64,000 nucleotides of DNA from Fimicolochytrium jonesii (lineage: Eukaryota), in assembly GCF_025526975.1 (NCBI RefSeq), contig NW_026515682.1:372001-436000 (forward strand), given 5' to 3'. The position numbers and the translations under genes are program-made. The notes under the pieces are model-generated. The model was not told where the DNA came from, ran no database searches, and worked only from the letters and a program-made list of their open reading frames with translations. The stretch's first letter is position 1. Each line of letters begins with the position of its first letter. Of the stretch, positions 3,253 to 21,867 are shown in pieces.

Positions 3253-3359
3253 TTCCAGGGGTTAGGGTTAGGGTTAGGGTTAGGATAACCCTACACTCTT
3301 TCAAAGTGACCTGCCGTTCCAGGGGTTAGGGTTAGGGTTAGGGTTAGGGTAACCCTACA
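3253..3359 (+). repeat. Two 43-bp direct copies of TTCCAGGGG(TTAGGG)4-TAACCCTACA separated by a 21-bp spacer
   Basis: Copy 1 at 3253-3295 and copy 2 at 3317-3359 differ by one base (TTAGGA vs TTAGGG). Confidence 0.95.
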
Positions 3360-5362: not shown

Positions 5363-5394
5363 TAGGGTCCCTAACCTTAACCCTAACCCTAACC
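5363..5394 (-). repeat. Short interstitial telomeric tract (CCCTAA)4, one unit CCTTAA, preceded by an inverted TAGGGT
   Basis: tagggt-ccctaa-ccttaa-ccctaa-ccctaa-cc. Confidence 0.9.
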
Positions 5395-5565
5395 TTTGTA
5401 GGCAAAATTGACGGCGGATTGACAGCATTCGACAAACCAACACGCATGAGGGCGACAACGTTCTCGCTCAAAATGGGATATGGGAGTCGGCAAAATGGAA
5501 GAAGGTTATTGCAATGAATGTGGCGCTGGGTGGGCCGTCTTCCGGCGAGAGCTGATGAGAGGTAT

Positions 5566-6211
5566 GCATAAATAAACATCCCCCCAATGCAGGCACCCCT
5601 CACCTCCAATAGGACACGGAAAGGAAAACGACGGAGGAAGATTACTCCCGCAAGACGAGCTGTGGACATGAAAACCGGATTGACAGCATCGGGGTTGTGG
5701 GATGCATAAACATCCCCAATGGGGGCACTCCTCACCTCCAATAGGACACGGAAAGGGAAACGACGCAGGAAGATTCCACCCGCAAGACGAACTGGAAATG
5801 AAAACCAGATTGACAGCATCGGGGATGTGGGATGCATAAACATCCCCAATGGGGGCACTCCTCACCTCCAATAGGACACGGAGAGGAAAACGACGCAGGA
5901 AGGTTACGCCGGGACGAACTGGACATGAAAACTAGATTGACAGCATCGGGGATGTGGGATGCATAAACATCCTCAATGGGGACTCCTCACCTCCAATAGG
6001 ACACGGAGAGGAAAACGACGCAGGAAGGTTAAGCCGGGACGAACTGGACATGAAAACTAGATTGACAGCATCGGGGATGTGGGATGCATAAACATCCCCA
6101 ATGGGGGCCCTCCGCATCTCCAACCTGACACGGAGAGGAAAACGACGCAGGAAGGTTAAGCCGGGACGAACTGGACATGAAAACCAGATTGACAGCATCA
6201 GGGATGTGGGA
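5566..6211. repeat. Tandem array of 5 units of about 125-132 bp, with a diverged sixth unit near 6300-6420
   Basis: GCATAAACATCC..CTCCAATAGGACACGG..ACGACGCAGGAAG..ATTGACAGCATCGGGGATGTGGGAT recurs; anchor CTCCAA at 5604, 5736, 5866, 5991, 6118 and 6333. Confidence 0.95.
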
Positions 6212-6553
6212 GCAGCTATAGCAGTTGACAACTGTGACGGGCAATGACAGCCTCCCGAGCGGGACAGACTACGTATATGGCTCTATCGTGGAGAGGTTAC
6301 TTATAAACATAGCCATTGCTCACACTTCCCAGCTCCAATAGGACACCGTGGACGAGGAAAAGGAAAGAAACGACACCGGAATATGCAGGGCTACTGAAAT
6401 CGTCACTGGATATGGACGATAGCATAGCATTCGACACCAACAAGATATGCTGGATATGCTGGACCACCATCCAGTCGCCATACCAACGTCTCCATATCCA
6501 CCCACAGGCGATAGGACCCGTCGTCGTCGTCACATATCAACACGCTATGGACC

Positions 6554-6614
6554 TAGCCCATAGCCCATAGCCCATAGCCCATAGCCCATAGCTCACACCC
6601 ATACCCATACCCAT
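6554..6614. repeat. (TAGCCCA)5 and (CCCATA)n microsatellites, telomere-like variants
   Basis: Read directly from the sequence. Confidence 0.9.
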
Positions 6615-6637
6615 CCGCTGCAACAAAAACCTCAACA

Positions 6638-6935
6638 CCTCCTCGCTCGTCAGTCATCCTCGGACTTCGTCGCCATTCCACGCTGACAACCCCTCCTCGC
6701 TCGTCAGTCATCCTCGCCTTCGTCGCCATTCTACCGCATCACCCTGACAACCCCTCGCTCGGCGTCATCCTCGGACTTCCGTCGGCACTCGGACTTCACC
6801 CCTGTCGTCGTCAGCAGGCCCAGGCCATCCCGGGCTCGGATTTCGTCGCCAGTCGGACTTCGTCGGCATTCCACGTGCGCTTACGACCACCTATGCGTCG
6901 TCGGCACCCCTGTCGTCGTCAGCAGGCCCAGGTCG
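6638..6935. repeat. Degenerate short repeats (CCTCGCTCGTCAGTCATCCTCG, CGGACTTCGTCG, CACCCCTGTCGTCGTCAGCAGGCCCAGG x2)
   Basis: Several imperfect direct copies are visible. Confidence 0.8.
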
Positions 6936-7254
6936 GTCATCGTCCTTCTCCCGCCGCGACAAAAACGCGTCACATAATCACCTCGCGTCGCATCCCGCAA
7001 TCCCTTCAGACACCGACAACGCGTTGCCCGCTTAGCATCGTCAGCCAAAGAACACCGGGAACTTCCAGGCCTCCCCTTTCTCATGAATCATCGGCGCATT
7101 TGAAATGCGAGCACGCAATTCCCCTGGATTGCGGGCGCAGTCCTATACTGTGCCACCTTTTGGAAATGAGGTTCTTCCTCGGGATCTCGTTTCCAGAGGG
7201 AGCAGCAGCGAGCAGAGAGAGAGCCGTTGCGGGCGTCCTAGTGAGCCCGAAGTC

Positions 7255-7261
7255 TATAAAA
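7255..7261 (+). promoter_or_regulatory. Candidate TATA box (TATAAAA) upstream of the repeat-rich unit
   Basis: CTATAAAAGG followed by a pyrimidine-rich stretch and TCAGT at about 7301. Confidence 0.45.
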
Positions 7262-7324
7262 GGAGGACCTCGGTTCGCCCTCCCCTCCACTTTTTCCTCA
7301 TCAGTTCCGCACACAACAATCTCC

Positions 7325-7530
7325 TCTACTACTACTACCTCTTCCCTACTACTACCTCTTCTCGACTACTACCTCTTCACTACTACTACCTCTTCTCGAC
7401 TACTACCTCTTCTCGACTACTACCTCTTCGCTACTACTACCTCTTCTCGACTACTACCTCTTCTCGACTACTACCTCTTCGCTACTACTACCTCTTCTCG
7501 ACTACTACCTCTTCTCGACTACTACCTATC
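7325..7530. repeat. CTA-rich minisatellite (CTACTACCTCTTCTCGA / CTACTACCTCTTCG units)
   Basis: Read directly; it produces spurious YYY/TTT-rich ORFs. Confidence 0.95.
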
Positions 7531-7571
7531 GGTCGCTCACGTACTACTACTCTGGCCTACTGCCGACTACA

Positions 7572-8110
7572 ACACAAGATCAACGTCCGCTACCGCTTCG
7601 CCAGCACCCAAGATCAAGATCCGCTATACCGCTTCGCCAGCACCCAAGATCAACGTCCGCTATACCGCTCCGCACCCAAGATCAAGGTCCGCTACCCGCT
7701 TCACCAGCACCCAAGATCAAGGTCCGCTGTACCGCTTCGCCAGCACCCAAGATCAAGGTCCACTACCCGCTTCGCCAGCACACAAGATCAAGGTTCGTCA
7801 TCGTCCGCAATGACCTTAAACTACCACCCTTCATCGACAGTACCGCTTCGCCAGCCACTACCACTACCACCCTTCATCGACGGTACCGCTTCATCAGCAC
7901 ACAAGATCAAGGTCCGTCATCGTCCGCAATGACCTTAACCTACCACCCTTCATCGACGGTACCGCTTCGCCAGCCACTATCACTACCACCCTTCATCGAC
8001 GGTACCGCTTCATCAGCACACAAGATCAAAATCCGTCATCGTCCGCAATGACCTTAAACTACCACCATCGGCGCTCTTCTTCGGTATTATCGGGTCCGAA
8101 ATGACGCTAA
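7572..8110. repeat. Minisatellite TACCGCTTCGCCAGCACCCAAGATCAAGGTCCG grading into an approximately 120-bp higher-order unit (CGTCCGCAATGACCTTAA..CTACCACC at about 7802, 7921 and 8040)
   Basis: Read directly from the sequence. Confidence 0.9.
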
Positions 8111-8618
8111 ACTACGATCATCGGCGCTTCTTCTTCGGTCGGCACTATCGGGTCCGGGAAACTACCATCGGCACTTCTTCTTCGGTCGGCACTCCTTTTC
8201 GGCACTCCTTCGGCACCGTGCTGGGGGAACCACGTGAAACGCCCCGACGTTCCATTCTTTTCTTTTCTTTCCTTTTCTTTTCGTTTCTTCTCGTGCTAAC
8301 TTTCCATTCTTTTCTTTCCTTTCTTTTCGTGCTGGGAGCATGCGTACGTTAAAGGGCCGGTGCTAGGCAACCACAGAAAACGCTTCGTGCTGGTAGGCAT
8401 GCGTACGTTAAAGGGCCGGTGCTGGGCTACCACAGAAAACGCTCCGTGATGGAAGACACACGTTAAATAGCCCGCGTAATGGGCGTTATGAACCTGGAAT
8501 GTGATTGAAATCAACGCAAAGCGACCGTGACACTCGGTGGCTACCTTCGGGTAGACAGGGCAGGGGCTGGTGATGAGAGTGGTGAGGTGAGTTACGTGCT
8601 GTGAAATACAAGAATCAC

Positions 8619-8966
8619 GTATATCGACTGACGATCTGGTTATTAGTTGTCTTTTCTTTACCGTCGGCGCTCTTCTTCGGCACTCTTCTTCGGTCCACTG
8701 GTTAGTTATCTCATCTTAGGAAATCGTGACTGATTCTTGTATATCGACTGACGATCTGGTTATTAGTTGTCTTTTCTTTACCGTCGGCGCTCTTCTTCGG
8801 CACTCTTCTTCGGTCCACTGGCTAGTTATCTCATCTTATAAAATCGTGACTGATTCTTGTATATCGACTGAGGATCTGGTTATTAGTTGTCTTTTCTTTA
8901 CCGTCGGCGCTCTTCTTCGGCACTCTTCTTCGGTCCACTGGTTAGTTATCTCACCTTATGAAATCG
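8619..8966 (+). repeat. Three near-identical tandem units with exact 120-bp period
   Basis: GTATATCGACTGACGATCTGGTTATTAGTTGTCTTTTC... starts at 8619, 8739 and 8859. Confidence 0.97.
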
Positions 8967-8974
8967 CAATCCTC

Positions 8975-9356
8975 TTCGGTCGGGTCCGAAATGACGTTAA
9001 ACTACCATCGGCACTCCTTCGGCACTCCTTCGGCGCTCCTTCGGCACTCCTTCGGCACTTCTTCGGTTCGGTCGGGTCCGAAATGACGTTAAACTACCAT
9101 CGGCACTCCTCGGCACTCCTTCGGTTCGGTCGGGTCCGAAATGACGTTAAACTACCATCGGCACTCCTTCGGTTCGGTCGGGTCCGAAATGACGTTAAAC
9201 TACCATCGGCACGTCCGAAATGACGTTAAACTACGATCGGCACGTGGAAGTGGAAGAAACACGTTAACCAGCCCGTGGACGTGGACGACACGTTAACCAG
9301 CCCGTGGAAGTGGAAAAACACGTTAACCAGCCCGTGATCAGGAAAACCACGTTAAA
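8975..9356. repeat. About 45-bp units (TCGGGTCCGAAATGACGTTAAACTACCATCGGCAC) followed by about 30-bp units (CGTGGAAGTGGAA..ACACGTTAACCAGCC)
   Basis: Read directly from the sequence. Confidence 0.93.
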
Positions 9357-9481
9357 CGACCCGCGTAATGGGCGTTATGAACCTGGAATGTGATGAAATC
9401 AACGCAAAGCGACCGTGACACTCGGTGGCCATGGAAGGATCGCTGGGCGACTCCATGGACAGGGAATGTGGACAGGGCGAC

Positions 9482-9870
9482 TCTTGAGGTATGTATTTGA
9501 TCATCATCGTCGCCGTCGTGATCTTCACTGCTCTTCAACATTCATTGATATCGTCTTCTGCTTCTCTATTAGATGAGAGTGATGACGAGGATCTTGAGGT
9601 ATGTATTTGATCATCATCGTCGCCGTTGCGGATCATCACTCGTCTTCTGCTTCTCCATTAGATGAGAGTGATGACGAGGATCTTGAGGTATGTATTTGAT
9701 CGTCATCGTCGCCGTCGCACTGCTCTTCAACATTCATTGATATCGTCTTCTGCTTCTCTATTAGATGAGAGTGATGACGAGGATCTTGAGGTATGTTTTT
9801 GATCATCATCGTCGCCGTCGCACTGCTCTTCACTGCTCTTCAACATTCATTGATATCGTCTTCTGCTTCT
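9482..9870 (+). repeat. Four tandem units of 89-110 bp (TCTTGAGGTATGT...TTAGATGAGAGTGATGACGAGGA)
   Basis: TCTTGAGGTATGT at 9482, 9592, 9681 and 9784. Confidence 0.95.
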
Positions 9871-10438
9871 CGTCTTCAGGAGCTAGAGGACGCTAGAGGA
9901 CGCCGAAATCGACATCGAGAACTTCATCGAGGAAGCCGGCGAGAACGACATCGACGAGGCCGCGGAGCAAGACGTCAAGGAGCTAAGGTAAATATCATCA
10001 TTGTCTGCTTTGATCACTGTTCGAAATCCGCTAACACTCGTCGTCGTCCATAGAAGCCACCGGACACGCAGGAACTACCATCGGCACGTCAACGACCATC
10101 GGCACGTTAAACGACTGTCGGCACATTGAACGACCATCGGCACTCTTCTTCGGCACTCTTTTTCGTTTCGGCACCACCCTTCTTCGCTCGTGCTGGGCAC
10201 CCACGTTAAAAGGCCCAAGCGAAGCGACCGTTCTTCTCGGTGGCTCCCTCGGGAGACAATCGTGCTGGGAGCATGCGTACGTTAAAGGGCCGGTGCTGGG
10301 CAACCACATTAAACGCTCTGGAATGTGAGAATCAACGCGAAGCGACCGTTATACTCGGTGGCTCCCTCGGGAGACAAGTAATGGGACGGGAATGACTCGT
10401 ATATATCTCTCTTGTACTATATTATAATACTATCTTTC

Positions 10439-10444
10439 AATAAA
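10439..10444 (+). terminator. Candidate polyadenylation signal AATAAA in an AT-rich patch ending the repeat block
   Basis: TATATATCTC...TATTATAATACTATCTTTCAATAAAAA. Confidence 0.35.
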
Positions 10445-10973
10445 AACTACTTTTGAACTATACTACTTGCTCTGCTTCGTGCGCTCTTCGAAAAATGGCT
10501 TGCAAACTATTCTACTTCTCCCTCCTGTTGTGGGTGCAGGTTAGGGTGTGTGCGTCACGCGCTTCAGAGTGGAAAGGACGACGGCTTCGCACGGCTGTAT
10601 GTACCCCCATTTTTCTACAAGTTGCCTTCATCGGCGACGCCTCAGGCAGAGGTACAATGATGTGGAGTACTGTACAGTATATGTATGTGACTGCGTTTGT
10701 CTCGCCGTGGCCAGAGGTGCGGTACCGGATGCTTGGAATGCTTGGTGTCGGGCACTTTCTTATTCATTGTCCTTGGTAGTCGCTGGTCGCGTCGCGGGGG
10801 GGTGGGGGGGGGGGGGGGGCCGGCTTGGAAGTCAAGTGACGCATACTGTACGTATAAATAGCTGCGCGTCGTCGGGCAGAACACCTTTTTCCTCCAGCAT
10901 CTCAGCATTTCAAGACCAAGATTCCGTGGCCCATTCCCAGATTCCGTTGCCCATTCCCAATTACACTAGAAGA

Positions 10974-11151
10974 AGTTATGACCACTGCCGGCACGGCCAG
11001 GCGTGATTGTTAACTATCTTCTGGTGCGTCTGGTGAATGGTGAATGGTGAATGGTTAATGGTGAAGCTACCTCGGCTCTCGCTCAGACTCTCGCTCCACA
11101 TCCGATGAACAGTTATGACCACTGCCGGCACGGCCAGGCGTGATTGTTAAC
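10974..11151. repeat. 41-bp direct repeat AGTTATGACCACTGCCGGCACGGCCAGGCGTGATTGTTAAC (10974-11014 and 11111-11151)
   Basis: Two identical copies flank a (GGTGAAT)n microsatellite. Confidence 0.95.
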
Positions 11152-11799
11152 CCTACTTCTGTGTTGGAGGTGCTGTGTTCTGCACTCCGGCCCGTCGGCC
11201 ACGGTCGCTTCTGCGTCCGCCACCGCTACGACCACTGATACGGTTACTTCGACTGAGCCCAGGTCCGCGGTGACTGAGCCTACCAAAAACAAGGTCATTC
11301 GGGTCAGATCGGTTGCCTCTGCTACCTCGGTCGAACTTCCTCCGGTTACCTCTGTGCCTGAACAGGCGGTCACCTCTATTTCTATTCCACTGCCTCTTTT
11401 TCCCACGTCGGTTCCGCCGCCTCCCCCGGTTTTCCCCTGCCCTATCCGCCGCTCTTCCCGAACCCGTACGTCGCCGGCATCCCCACGCTTGGCGCTTCCG
11501 TCGCGCCCTTCTCCCTGCAGCACCCAGGGAACCACCCGACCGCCCCGGCGTGCAGACCTACGGGCAAACTCACTGGATATCGGCGCCGAGGAGCCCCTGT
11601 ATCAAGCGATAGTTTCCTTTGGTATGCTTTCTGATAAATGTTACGGTCGCCTGCATTTTGTTTTTGCTAACGCACGCACGCAACTTGGAACCTCCCGTAC
11701 ATTCACCAGAATAACGTCCATCGCCTACATAACAACCCATGGAGACCGAAGGTAGGTTCTCGAGCAGGGAGGGAGCAGCGGGGAGATGAGGAAATGGGG

Positions 11800-12020
11800 T
11801 ACCCTGCCCAGATGGTTTCGCGCATATGGCGTATCCAGCCACTGTCAGCAGCCCCCGGGTTGGCGCATATGACGTATCCACTCAGGGGAGAAAGGAGAAG
11901 AGAGAGAGAGAGGGAGAGAGTGAGCGAGAGCGCGAGAGAGAGCGGACTATACCCTACCAGATGGTTTCGCGCATATGGCGTATGCACCTGGGGGATGAGG
12001 GAGAGGGAGAGAGAGAGCAG
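11800..12020. repeat. Duplicated TACCCT..CCAGATGGTTTCGCGCATATGGCGTAT block with GA microsatellites
   Basis: Copies at about 11800 and 11950, each followed by (GA)n-rich runs. Confidence 0.85.
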
Positions 12021-12148
12021 AGGCGCGCCCTTTTGGATTCCGCTGTCTGTCGTCGCACAAATGGTGGTAGAAGGCAAATCTCATTGGCGTCGTGGGCTAA
12101 CCCTGTCGGTGAATATCCTTGGGACATGTTCCACCCAATACTCCCGAG

Positions 12149-12302
12149 ACCCGAGTTAGGGTTGGGGTTAGGGTTAGGTTAGGGTTAGGGTTAGGGTTAG
12201 GGTTAGGGTTAGGGTTTACCCGAGTTAGGGTTGGGGTTAGGTTCGACAGAGTCGCGGTCAAATTGAGGCGCCATTAGGGTTAGGGTAACATTAGGGTTAG
12301 GG
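12149..12302 (+). repeat. Interstitial telomeric cluster: about 10 TTAGGG units (12156-12214) plus shorter tracts
   Basis: ACCCGAGTTAGGGTTGGGGTTAGG occurs twice (about 12149 and 12218); CATTAGGGTTAGGGTA occurs twice (12272-12304). Confidence 0.97.
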
Positions 12303-13449
12303 TACTCTTACGCTCAAGCTCGGCCTTACAGCCTTCACGCTCGGCCTTACAGCTTCACGCTCTCAGCGCCGTGGTTTGCCATTTGGTACGGCTGGGTAGG
12401 CACTACTACCCCAGCATTCATTTCCCACAAATACTCATCATCCAAAAAACGAATCATGGCTCGAGTCCTGCAACATAGGGCACTCAACTCTCCTTCTTCC
12501 CCTTATGCAGATACCGATAGACGTACAGTACATGTGCAGTATTCGTGTTCGAACCGGAGATGAGATATGGTGGGTGATCAGAGGAGGCTTTGCGACAAAG
12601 CGACAAACCGGAGATGGAACGGAAACAGGATGGTTGGACGGAAAGGGGAGGAGAGGAGTGATGGTGGAGGAGAGGAGAGGTAGCTGGCAGGTCGTGCCGG
12701 GACTCCAGGACTCCCGCACTTGCAGAACATTCCCACTTGCACATCCTCACGCACATCCTCACGCTGGTCTCTTGTTTTACAGCCTAAGCGACGAAACGAA
12801 TCTGAAGGGGAGGGGAAACGGACAAAGCGGGCGACAGCGGTACACGGATTCAGTCGTTTTAATACACTTCTGAAGCAAGATGCAGTCGGAATCATCTCAC
12901 GCTTCAATCTCAACGTCGAATCCGCGGAGGAATATGCCACAACAATTGCGCACCCGACACAAACCGTATCCGGTGGATAAACGCCCGACGAAAACATCTA
13001 TATGACCAGCTCGGAGCGGGAGAGAAGGGGCCGATCGAAGGGATTCCGTTGTCCCCAACTCCAACTCCAACACCAGCCCATGCCCTCGACGCATTACTGA
13101 GCGCCTGATCTATGTATTATAGACGACATTTTTGCTCCGGTTCTCCCAAATGACCCTCTCGCTATGCGGCCCGGGGCGCGGATCCACCAGTTTGTTGACA
13201 AGGCTGCATGGGCACAGAACCGGGAAGGAGATCACCAGCCCACGCCAACACCTGGCCCAACCCACACTACCACACCCAGCGCCATCTCAAACCCCGGCAT
13301 CGGCGGAGTTGACAACGGCGGCGGTGGAGTTGAAATCATGGCAGACAGCCGCGGCGGCGTTGAAATCATGGCAGACAGCGGCGGCGGTGGTGGAGTTCAA
13401 ATCGTGGCAGGCAGGGACGGCGGCGGTGGAGTTGAAATCGTGGCAGGCA

Positions 13450-14060
13450 GCGATTTCCAAAGTGTCAAAATGGCACGGAGATTCAATGTACCTATTCCGT
13501 TTGTTCCGGTAAGAAAAGTTACTTAAGTTACTAAAGTTACCGTACTTAACTAAACCAACTTTCCTTTTTTTTTTGTTTTATGTTCAGCGGTCTATCGATG
13601 TTGCAGAGTACAACGTACTGCTATTCCCAACAAACCCAGATAATCTGCACTGGGTCCTGTTTGCAATACTCGTCGCCCAAGTCCGCAAAACCCCTGGGCC
13701 CCCCTGGTTCGTCATTAACCAGACACGAAAACGTATCCCTCGTTTTATTTGACTCAAAGCCTCGCCCGAACGACCACGACTACGTTGATAAGATGGCCAA
13801 TATAGGCTCCCTCTTGTGGGATTGGTGCATTACGGCCACTGAAGTCCCGCTCAATCACACACCGACGCCGACACCGACGGTTGACGCCCTCTTCACGCCT
13901 CGACAGCGCGACGACCATAACTGTGGGACATTTGTGTGCATGATGGCTGATGCCATTGCACGTGGTGCCGTGGGTGAGGTTACCGAATCATGGGTCAATA
14001 CGCAGACCGCCGTCAATGCCCGCCATACCATCATCGCGCTGAGCATCGTGTTGGCCATGT
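13450..14060 (+). pseudogene. Frameshifted Ulp1/SENP-type (C48) cysteine protease remnant, probably transposon-borne
   Basis: After an intron (GTAAGA 13509..TTCAG 13587), frame 1 reads IDVAEYNVLLFPTNPDNLHWVLFAILV (His at 13648). Frame 2 continues VLFDSKP...TPRQRDDHNCGTFVCMMADAI (Cys at 13922). The H-D-C triad and oxyanion Q are split by a frameshift. Confidence 0.8.
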
Positions 14061-14259
14061 TTCTTCACGATGGTGATGCTCATCAGTATACGGATGTGAC
14101 GAAGTGCTAGAGATGGAAGATGCAGATGCCGGGATGGAAGGTGCAGAGATGTCGGCGTAGGAGGAGGTGCAGAAGGGGGTGCAGAAGGGTGTTGTGCCGA
14201 AAGATGCGAGCTCCTAGTTGTGATAGGGGTAGAGTATAGTATATTATACGTATAGTACG

Positions 14260-15015: not shown

Positions 15016-16139
15016 TGCAAAGGTGTACAATGGTCATGGCGGTCCCGTGCGCATTCCAACACTCCATCTTCGGCATGAGCTCACTCGTTGGGGAGGCAGA
15101 TGGTGCCCCACTGCGAGTCGCCCTCGGTGCTCCTACACGCCTTGCAAGGCACGACGTTTCTGGATGCTGCAGAGGTTCCCCTTGCTTGTCTCGGAACCCC
15201 ACCTACCAGTTCGTCGCTACCTGCACGTCGTCCGAAGCCGTCGGCTTTAGCTGCGCGTCGTCGGCAATGCGCAGAAGTGTTCTCCCACTGTCCCATTCGG
15301 CTCACTGCAACAAGGATCTACGGGTAAGCTTTATCACTTGAACTGGGTAACAGGGTGCCATCGCCTCATTGTTTCCTACCTCATTGTTCCTACTACGTAG
15401 CCACAAACAAGCGGAAACGAGACAACAAAGAGAACACGGCAGTCGATGGAGGTTGGTGTGTCCATTCCATTGAATTATCCGGCTGTAGGGCCGTAGGCTG
15501 GTGTGGTGTGGTGTGGTAAATATCGTACAGTGGGTCAATGGCTCACCCAACGCATCAACCAGAGACAACACCATTCCGCCGGAGTACGCTGGAGAAACGA
15601 TGGCTCAACAACCTCCAACTGAAAGCACTCTGCAAAACCGAGCAAAACCGCACCTGTCACGCCTCCGTCGCTCTGCATTCAGCGTTCCGCTCTCGACTTC
15701 ACGATCGCTTGAGGCTGATTGTTTTGGGCCGTCCTCGCGATCGTTTGCCATCCACCACAACCGCGATCGCTTGAGGCTGTTTGTTTGGGCCGTCCTCGCG
15801 ATCGTGTGCATCTCATTGAATTTATGCGGCGATCTTTTCCGGCACATCCTTTATCTAATCCGCTCCCTCGGCCGATCCCTCTGCATCGTCGAAACCTGCA
15901 CGTCGTCAGAAGAATTATGACCACGCGTGATTGTCATCTCTTCTGGTAAAGGGAGAATGGAACTCGACTCTTGCTCAGAAACATACTCCGCACCGAGCAA
16001 AACCGCACCTGTCACGCTAAGAGCTGGAACCATGGACCCGCATCATCCGAACCATGCTTCCCATTGGCCACGCTTCCCATTGGCCACCGCTGCCCCAGTC
16101 TCGAGCGTCGTTGCCCACGCTTCCCATTGGCCCAGCGCA

Positions 16140-16600
16140 TGTAACCCTAACTGTAAGTCATTTTGCGTGGAAGGCTGTTATATCGCGTGGAAGGCTATTG
16201 ACTCGCACATTTACAGGGTAACCCTAACCCTCAGTTACGGTACGGGTATTAGGGGAAGGCTGTAACCCTAACTGGAAGTTATTTCGCGCGGGAGGCTGTT
16301 ATATCGCGTGGAAGGCTATTGACTCGCATATTTACAGGGTAACCCTAACCCTCAGTTACGGTACGGGTATTAGGGGAAGGCTGTAACCCTAACTGGAAGT
16401 TATTTCGCGCGGGAGGCTGTTATATCGCGTGGAAGGCTATTGACTAGCACATTTACAGGGTAACCCTAACCCTCAGTTATGGTACGGGTATTAGGGGAAG
16501 GCTGTACCCCTAACCGCTGTGTTGTACACAACAAACCCTAACCCTCAGTTACGGTACGGGTATTCCGCGAAGGCTGTAACCCTAACTCGAAGTTATTTTG
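16140..16600. repeat. Tandem array of 121-bp units (3 full plus partial copies) containing telomere-like TAACCCTAAC and AGGGTAACCCTAACCCT
   Basis: TGTAACCCTAACT at 16140, 16261 and 16382, variant at 16503, partial copy at 16575. Confidence 0.97.
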
Positions 16601-21714: not shown

Positions 21715-21867
21715 TGTCATGGGATTAGGGTTAGGGATTAGGGTTATCAACCCTAATCCCCAACCTCACAACCCTAACCCAGTGATAACCCTAATCCCCA
21801 ACCCTAACCCCAACCTCACAACCCTAACCCGGTGATAACCCTAATCCCCAACCCTAATCCCATGACA
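21715..21867. repeat. 153-bp telomeric palindrome: 35-bp inverted repeats built from TTAGGG variants around CCCTAA-variant direct repeats
   Basis: Left arm TGTCATGGGATTAGGGTTAGGGATTAGGGTTATCA (21715-21749) and right arm TGATAACCCTAATCCCCAACCCTAATCCCATGACA (21833-21867) differ by one mismatch. Confidence 0.95.

Follow-up and report, generated by a model that had tools for sequence, protein, structure and literature searches.

What does a chromosomal interval encode, if anything, when it consists of a mosaic of minisatellites lying between a TATA box and a poly(A) signal? We address this for positions 7,255 to 10,444 (the unit) of a 64,000-nucleotide stretch of Fimicolochytrium jonesii DNA (contig NW_026515682.1, positions 372,001 to 436,000, forward strand; the window). 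An earlier note on this DNA had proposed either a spliced non-coding RNA built of repeats, serving as a scaffold or small-RNA precursor, or a dead gene undergoing runaway internal duplication. We find that the unit contains 19 virus-type motifs, nine of them copies of coremin (xrRNA-C, a class of exonuclease-resistant RNA, or xrRNA) and ten of them compact pseudoknot-type units, all on the plus strand and none elsewhere in the 64 kb. The idea of a spliced, repeat-built RNA thus gains specific content, in that the repeats are largely virus-type exonuclease-roadblock motifs of strict plus-strand polarity, while the transcript itself is a prediction. The reading we favour, which we regard as finely balanced, is that the unit likely gives a spliced RNA polymerase II (Pol II) non-coding RNA on which Xrn1 would stall at some copies, leaving nested stable RNAs.

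The coremin copies were recognised in two ways. The published coremin descriptor finds eight copies in the window, all on the plus strand and all within the unit; shuffled sequences give a single match in 5 of 2000 shuffles of the unit and in 2 of 100 shuffles of the window. A profile built from 62 viral copies (69 candidates, of which seven with duplicate registers or odd loops were removed) scores nine window copies at 25–36 bits, with the rest of both strands below 8 bits. The requirements published for coremin are a hairpin of 3-4 bp whose loop is YGAD or YGNNAD, an intact A16–A20 in the spacer and, directly 3' of the spacer, a stable second hairpin of at least 2 bp (PMC6546385, PMC10520033, both in excerpt). 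By sequence, the first hairpin is 3-4 bp long in all nine window copies and its loop is closed by a C-G or U-A pair, and all nine loops fit the consensus (CGAAAU six times, CGCAAU three times). [quoted passage not shown] The 10-nt spacer has A16–A20 intact in eight copies, the exception being the copy at 7922, which carries A17C; at the same position, A17U abolishes Xrn1 resistance (PMC6546385, excerpt). Identity among the five distinct copies is 93% over the motif and 30–35% over the ungapped flanks, a contrast that is inflated by indels.

The 22-mer shared by the five identical copies at 8984–9234 occurs exactly in 32 viral contigs and six prokaryotic genome contigs, and a control 22-mer shifted within the same repeat occurs in no viral contig. 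Apart from a few related groups the flanks of the exact matches are mutually unrelated, and their likeness to the window is confined to the motif. The exact CGCAAU/C12 variant is found in no viral contig, its two differences each being found separately in viral copies. A wider viral scan yielded at least 123 coremin loci, 101 of them distinct. Among the matches listed (101 distinct), the loop is CGAA in 39, CGAAAU in 20 and CGCAAU in 18, the latter two being both the commonest 6-nt viral loops there and the loops of the window copies; none has 5 nt, and YG..AD is present in 96 of the 101. The 44 variant copies near viral matches are all same-strand; several of them have compensated stems, and the spacer variants seen in the window are among them. 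The motif is found in RNA viruses, in phage-like contigs and in one giant-virus contig (L011). Across the 38 exact-match loci, some of which are redundant, it is sense to the nearest upstream open reading frame (ORF) in 31 of 31 cases; for the nearest ORF downstream this holds in 30 of 32. Of the ORFs in these loci, 19 were scanned and eight encode polymerases or capsids of RNA viruses, and we therefore take the motif to work as RNA.

These data bear on the possibility that the shared core acts instead as DNA, to which a transposase or a factor of the host binds in the manner of subterminal repeats in DNA transposons, with its likeness to coremin incidental. TTAGGG clusters are present in the interval, and an Ulp1 relic downstream of the unit is of a type presumably carried by DNA transposons. 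However, the exact 22-mer resides in contigs that encode RNA-virus polymerases and capsids, its orientation to the nearest upstream ORF is invariant, a second and independent viral motif co-occurs with it, and no terminal inverted repeats were found; we consider this explanation very improbable.

Coremin also appears in other settings. In phage-like and Limosilactobacillus loci (L007, L012, L016, L023, L024, L028, L092 and similar) it is the same-strand 3' neighbour of a transfer RNA (tRNA) or a tRNA-like sequence, in most cases lacks a second hairpin, and may there block bacterial 5'-3' decay. At L001:3025-3086 an Rfam GP20-b motif that fits a compact H-type pseudoknot is immediately 3' of a coremin, a pairing of motifs as in the window. 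The minus strand of metagenome contig L054 has about seven copies at roughly 100–610, most of them right after the stop of an ORF with a PA14 domain. L077 and L088 represent a repeat mosaic of eukaryotic appearance; its contig has a copia gag relic, and the mosaic holds four tandem coremin-like copies with an 8-nt loop breaking the YG rule, possibly a second chromosomal coremin array. A metagenome protein (P0012) has five repeats that resemble a coremin hairpin in translation, though with an altered spacer, and a search of viral contigs for its relatives gave none. A scan of metagenomes for tandem cores returned 52 loci, mostly an unrelated palindromic repeat, and none like the window beyond the motif.

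For the second motif, a generic pseudoknot descriptor finds six matches on the plus strand of the unit and none on the minus strand, against 0.73 in 200 shuffles; four of the six are this motif. A descriptor of the motif itself, which is partly circular in that it was drawn in part from window copies, finds ten copies in the unit, all on the plus strand, and none elsewhere in the window. Viral contigs were also searched independently, with the second stem, the 3' half of the first stem and the A tract as the sole constraints. GTG, which this search left free, is nonetheless present in 6 of 17 distinct matches (0.8 expected, p = 8e-5), five of these six share the C/A-T linker, and one viral locus (L232) is near-identical to the window copy at 10189. 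All ten window copies have the GTG-(C/A)T start, the first stem and the A-tract linker, and five have a second stem of 4-5 bp. Three of these five are in the 8217–8474 series, which is interrupted by a pyrimidine tract at 8250–8325; the plus-strand unit at 9334 has no second stem. The five copies with a second stem are diverged, and 94% of cells pair, with one pair altered on both sides. Because they resemble and accompany the coremins, we guess that the pseudoknot-type units may also be roadblocks.

Self-alignment divides the unit into three modules offset by about 0.9 kb. The first has four coremins, six pseudoknot-type units and a multi-hairpin domain that we call H, followed by introns; the second has five coremins, one pseudoknot-type unit and H, again followed by introns; and the last has decayed coremin spacers, three pseudoknot-type units and H copies ahead of the poly(A) signal. 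Domain H ends each module (8498, 9384, 10319), with a partial copy at 10217. One of its stems is constant with a variable 7-nt loop, and its last arm is a hairpin in every copy despite differing arm sequence. No Rfam family and no viral contig matched it, and a 12-nt match in 6 of 241 loci was nowhere accompanied by its layout. Positions of all features are given in Table 1.

Table 1. Features of the unit and the downstream relic, in window coordinates
Feature	Positions	Strand	Basis
TATA box, then pyrimidine-rich tract and initiator-like TCAGT at 7301	7255–7261	+	sequence; function presumed
17-nt minisatellite, 11.6 copies; AUG-free leader	7328–7527	+	repeat scan
35/36-nt array; core like a decayed coremin hairpin	7572–7794	+	repeat scan; likeness by eye only
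Coremin copy, loop CGCAAU, 33.3 bits	7803–7824	+	descriptor and profile
Coremin copy, A17C in invariant spacer, 25.2 bits, probably inactive	7922–7943	+	profile
Coremin copy, loop CGCAAU, 33.3 bits	8041–8062	+	descriptor and profile
Coremin copy, loop CGAAAU, 33.8 bits	8094–8115	+	descriptor and profile
Six pseudoknot-type units (8218, 8329, 8360, 8387, 8419, 8446)	8217–8474	+	fold predicted
Domain H, multi-hairpin, copy 1	8498–8560	+	
Predicted intron I1, 60 nt, GTGAGT..CTGAC..TAG	8587–8646	+	
Predicted intron I2, 66 nt, within 120-nt array	8701–8766	+	
Five identical coremin copies (8984, 9076, 9134, 9182, 9213), loop CGAAAU, 36.4 bits each	8984–9234	+	
Three degenerate 29/30-nt hairpin-plus-spacer units, then pseudoknot-type unit at 9334	9243–9362	+	
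Domain H, copy 2; last arm a different, longer hairpin	9384–9465	+	
Four duplicated predicted introns, GTATGT donors (9489–9572, 9599–9661, 9688–9764, 9791–9879)	9489–9879	+	
Predicted exon, acidic peptide in one frame; in-frame stop ahead, no start codon; possible coding relic	9880–9987	+	
Predicted intron I9, 66 nt, GTAAAT..CTAAC..TAG	9988–10053	+	
Decayed coremin-spacer repeats, 19-nt period, without conserved first hairpin	10073–10143	+	
Three pseudoknot-type units, 10190 (9 predicted pairs), 10262 and 10293; partial domain H at 10217–10258	10189–10318	+	
Domain H, copy 3	10319–10378	+	
Predicted 3' end: TA-rich element, AATAAA at 10439, U-rich tail	10401–10460	+	
Ulp1 (Peptidase_C48) relic, frameshifted, internally deleted, of a dispersed family	13119–14110	+	Pfam, protein comparison

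Is the unit transcribed? The TATAAAA and the AATAAA (10439–10444) that the earlier note took as its ends are both present, but as a bracket they are weak alone, as that AATAAA can also be paired with TATAAA sequences at 6302 and 8837. The two introns given as examples are also present: one opens with GTGAGT at 8587 and has CTGAC and a TAG at 8646, the other opens with GTAAAT at 9988 and has CTAAC and a CATAG at 10053. Such introns exceed chance: a scan of the unit for donor, branch site and acceptor finds six on the plus strand and none on the minus strand, whereas 1000 dinucleotide shuffles averaged 0.13 and each gave fewer than three. Several of the six are duplicated copies, leaving about three independent origins; a looser reading allows eight intron-like segments to be drawn on the plus strand. 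The donor pattern itself occurs seven times on the plus strand of the unit and not on its minus strand, with 1.1 expected from the remainder of the window. The repeat after I2 (8821–8886) has a GC donor and an altered branch site, the donor at 8941 has no nearby acceptor, and of the GTATGT-donor introns, which are spaced by three 26-nt exons, that at 9599–9661 has no clear branch site. Provided that the orphan donor at 8941 is unused, every coremin and pseudoknot-type motif falls within predicted exons. The minisatellite mosaic is borne out, with array periods of 17, 35/36, 119, 59, 120, 48, 31, 29 and 89/103 nt. Promoter, intron and poly(A) consensus on one strand together with the lack of a conserved ORF are the marks of a spliced long non-coding RNA (lncRNA), and on this sequence evidence we think it probable that the unit is transcribed.

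Searches for known RNA and protein families in the unit were negative. Rfam gave no match at gathering score across the window and only four weak ones in 5400–12100 (E 0.47–3.2), among which C/D small nucleolar RNA models were rejected as far below their cut-offs. Pistol and hatchet ribozymes, which we take to resemble these repeats in having a hairpin with an A tract after it, have no Rfam match. The suggestion of a small-RNA precursor finds no support, as the unit contains no long inverted repeat. That it lacks a credible long ORF holds with two qualifications: there are stop-free frames of 263–411 codons, because the repeats have no stops, and the longest ATG ORF over 256 splice combinations starting at 7285 is 174 amino acids (aa). 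No Pfam family matched the unit's frames, these stop-free ones included, and a homologue search with a 167-aa frame at 8720–9220 gave seven repeat-type matches of no clear relation.

A coding role is nevertheless suggested by a public plus-strand gene model of 334 aa from F. jonesii (P0004), which is the translation of 6893–7932 less a 35-nt gap that can be placed as GT..AG at 7687–7721, and which overlaps the 5' part of the unit on the same strand, a point that also favours the non-coding transcript. By the way such gene models are numbered, the low number of P0004 may mark it as derived from a transcript. Its start at 6893 means that the 5' end of the unit may lie upstream of 7255. The unit could then be a messenger RNA, or the long 3' untranslated region of the frame starting at 6893, with motifs that stall ribosomes, shift frames or protect a downstream cistron. 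The CGAAAU coremin stalls scanning ribosomes in vitro (PMC10520033, excerpt), coremins are reported in the literature to promote -1 frameshifting in vitro, the motif is 11–43 nt past a stop in several RNA-virus loci, and splicing of I1 and I2 opens an ORF of 152–174 aa from 8573. P0004, however, crosses 17-nt repeats that cycle through the frames, has no Pfam match, is the sole match in a search with that frame, and has a gap that is exactly one repeat unit long; moreover, most array periods are not multiples of three. Translational control is accordingly an unlikely explanation in our view.

A more serious challenge is that the motifs are inert. A virus-derived fragment with one coremin, one pseudoknot and domain H could have entered a decaying mobile-element gene and been multiplied by slippage and segmental duplication, its transcript being noise. 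The earlier proposal of a dead gene with runaway duplication fits in part, given the threefold modules, the decayed copies, the start-less acidic exon and the nearby Ulp1 relic. Further signs of such a history are the mosaic of non-triplet arrays, the five identical coremin copies, which point to recent duplication, the decayed copies at 7922, 9243–9331 and 10073–10143, and the nearby tandem arrays without the motif (5572–6211 and 16140–16514).

Several observations weigh against Xrn1 stalling, and among them the missing second hairpins and the competing pairing also favour an inert relic. A second hairpin of -1 kcal/mol or lower directly 3' is found in one of the nine coremin copies (9182) and one below 0 in two of the nine, and the BNYVV coremin needs its second hairpin in vitro (PMC6546385, excerpt). 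Weak second stems of 2-5 bp are possible in seven of eight copies, and natural viral copies pass the same test in 25 of 37 cases with a 4-nt loop and in 16 of 61 with a loop of at least 6 nt; because just 16 of the latter pass, the test separates poorly. In 5'-trimmed molecules the predicted probability of the first hairpin is below 0.2 in six of nine copies, and in 24 of 61 natural copies, under a folding model that leaves tertiary contacts out. A flanking TCGG can, by eye, pair with the coremin motif. One copy carries A17C and further copies have decayed. In favour of stalling, three of the four substitutions among copies are at tolerated positions and recur in viral arrays, but this is weak evidence (about 0.08 by hand estimate). 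Covariation in the five pseudoknot copies with a second stem is no higher than in shuffles (105 of 500), domain H folds no better than its shuffles (z -0.97 to 0.06), and searches of annotated proteins found no paralogue or orthologue of the unit.

The Ulp1 relic, 2.7 kb downstream, belongs among these points. It is frameshifted, about 200 codons shorter than P0002, and dead. Three related annotated Ulp1 proteins lie on two other contigs, and the two found by search are 85-86% identical to the query, which suggests that the family is mobile. It resembles what we take to be the Ulp1-carrying DNA transposons (Mutator/Kaonashi and Zisupton/KDZ) in its Peptidase_C48 gene and its three related annotated copies elsewhere. 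Other hallmarks of such elements are missing: no Pfam transposase was found among stop-to-stop frames of at least 55 aa in 4.7–17 kb, nor were terminal repeats or a target duplication found. F. jonesii also carries a giant-virus capsid gene relic (PMC13533422, excerpt), as a history of viral capture and decay would have it. Against neutral multiplication, the promoter, introns and poly(A) signals are all intact, the coremin motif is far better preserved than its ungapped flanks over the five distinct copies (with the caveat on indels given above), the second stem is retained in five diverged pseudoknot copies, and domain H changes an arm yet keeps its pairing. We regard an inert relic as possible, though on the unlikely side.

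The stalling reading draws on what is observed, namely which motifs these are, how many there are and on which strand, together with the promoter, intron and poly(A) consensus sequences, and leads to the following model. Pol II would start about 45 nt 3' of the TATA box, or of that at 6302, to give an RNA that would measure about 2.6-2.7 kb after splicing. The coremins would halt scanning ribosomes and so keep the RNA untranslated, since they stall scanning in vitro and contain the first four AUGs 3' of the TATA box, beginning with that at 7810. After decapping, Xrn1 would halt one base ahead of each folded copy, to leave nested polyadenylated RNAs with a common 3' end and predicted sizes of about 2.2, 1.9, 1.1-0.9 and 0.3 kb. 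In the last and weakest step, serial roadblocks would make for a long-lived RNA and tie up the nuclease, as a decoy that serves the adjacent mobile element, or the host if it has since been co-opted. Whether Xrn1 stalls here in cells is, on the sequence features, an evenly weighted question, and a decoy role seems doubtful.

A viral origin of the motifs is plausible, because coremin is found in RNA viruses, phage-like contigs and the giant-virus contig and because the species has the capsid relic; most likely, the motifs would have been captured from a virus and then amplified within a spliced gene. The fullest version of this reading is a functional cellular xrRNA gene, a nuclear, spliced and polyadenylated RNA of about 19 captured viral roadblocks of two kinds together with domain H, which would yield a ladder of decay-proof RNAs and act as an RNA-only decoy of Xrn1 or Rat1; this we put forward tentatively, as rather less than probable.

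The window is fungal nuclear DNA, with Pfam-identified genes for Sec16, an ARID protein, a RAD5-like helicase, lipin and Clr2, as well as synaptobrevin, VAMP7-like by our reading, and a flagellar CLAMP protein. Around the unit, some 12 kb lack conserved genes, from the synaptobrevin gene (ending at about 4670) to the helicase gene (ending at about 17000). Two ACGCGT sites (6965 and 7019; seven in the whole window) are 240–290 nt 5' of the TATA box, and we take them to be like the MluI cell-cycle box (MCB). At 5572–6211 lies a 127-nt array of five copies. Each of its units has a potential pseudoknot, with 5 + 7 pairs at most, and contains a segment homologous to the region of the TATAAA at 6302; the array may have arisen by duplication of promoter DNA or may be further structured RNA. 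Another unit led by a TATA box, at 10853–11760, contains 203 stop-free codons in a frame rich in Pro, Ser and Thr, as well as an intron-like segment (11622–11709). A homologue search with its frame at 11144–11620 found none, and 15914–15960 looks, by eye, like the start of this unit. Interstitial TTAGGG clusters, often back to back, are at 3259–3350, 5369–5394, 12155–12304, 16140–16600 and 21721–21862, those at 5369 and 12155 flanking the repeat-rich region in opposite orientation.

A 2021 review knows characterised xrRNAs from viruses alone and suggests looking for them in eukaryotic genomes and lncRNAs (PMC8374639, excerpt), and the available excerpt of a 2025 paper (PMC12397905) does not mention coremin by name. 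Our literature search, which covered few subscription papers, found no report of a cellular coremin. The coremin motif itself is known. The locus is a concrete candidate for a cellular xrRNA with motifs of a tested type. If active in cells, it would mean that a eukaryote or its mobile element has turned a viral anti-decay device into a multi-copy non-coding RNA, and it would provide natural variants of a motif that has no solved structure in the literature examined; if inactive, it is still a record of viral RNA structures captured and amplified in a fungal chromosome.

How does the unit compare with known systems? Flaviviruses carry two to four tandem xrRNAs, against 19 motifs here, and their subgenomic flavivirus RNAs (sfRNAs) repress Xrn1. 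The RNAs predicted here are like sfRNAs in being non-coding products of incomplete Xrn1 decay at xrRNAs (PMC8374639, excerpt), but the fold is different, and sfRNA is made from a viral genome. The pseudoknot-type units resemble xrRNA-WCC (PMC10321173) and the small H-pseudoknots of luteoviral type in their short first stem, similar size, and a loop that pairs with bases 3' of an A-rich linker. They are not members of xrRNA-WCC, which requires G5, a 4-nt loop and a 3-bp Watson-Crick second stem with G8-C18 (PMC10321173), whereas in the window units the loop starts with C or A and is longer, the first loop is C or C-U and second stems are of 4-5 bp; they may work alike all the same. Their closest matches are uncharacterised viral motifs (L218, L225, L232, L234 and L238). 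The coremins of BNYVV RNA3, cucumoviruses, hypoviruses, chrysoviruses and other viruses stall Xrn1 in plant and fungal RNA viruses (PMC6546385, PMC10520033). The window copies share with them a 3-bp first hairpin closed by C-G, a YGNNAD loop, the spacer core AACUA, and tandem repetition of the motif, which is seen in viruses too. Unlike them, the window has nine copies, mostly without a second hairpin and with stalling predicted from sequence, and these lie in nuclear chromosomal DNA between VAMP7 and RAD5-like helicase genes, in the predicted exons of an intron-bearing unit.

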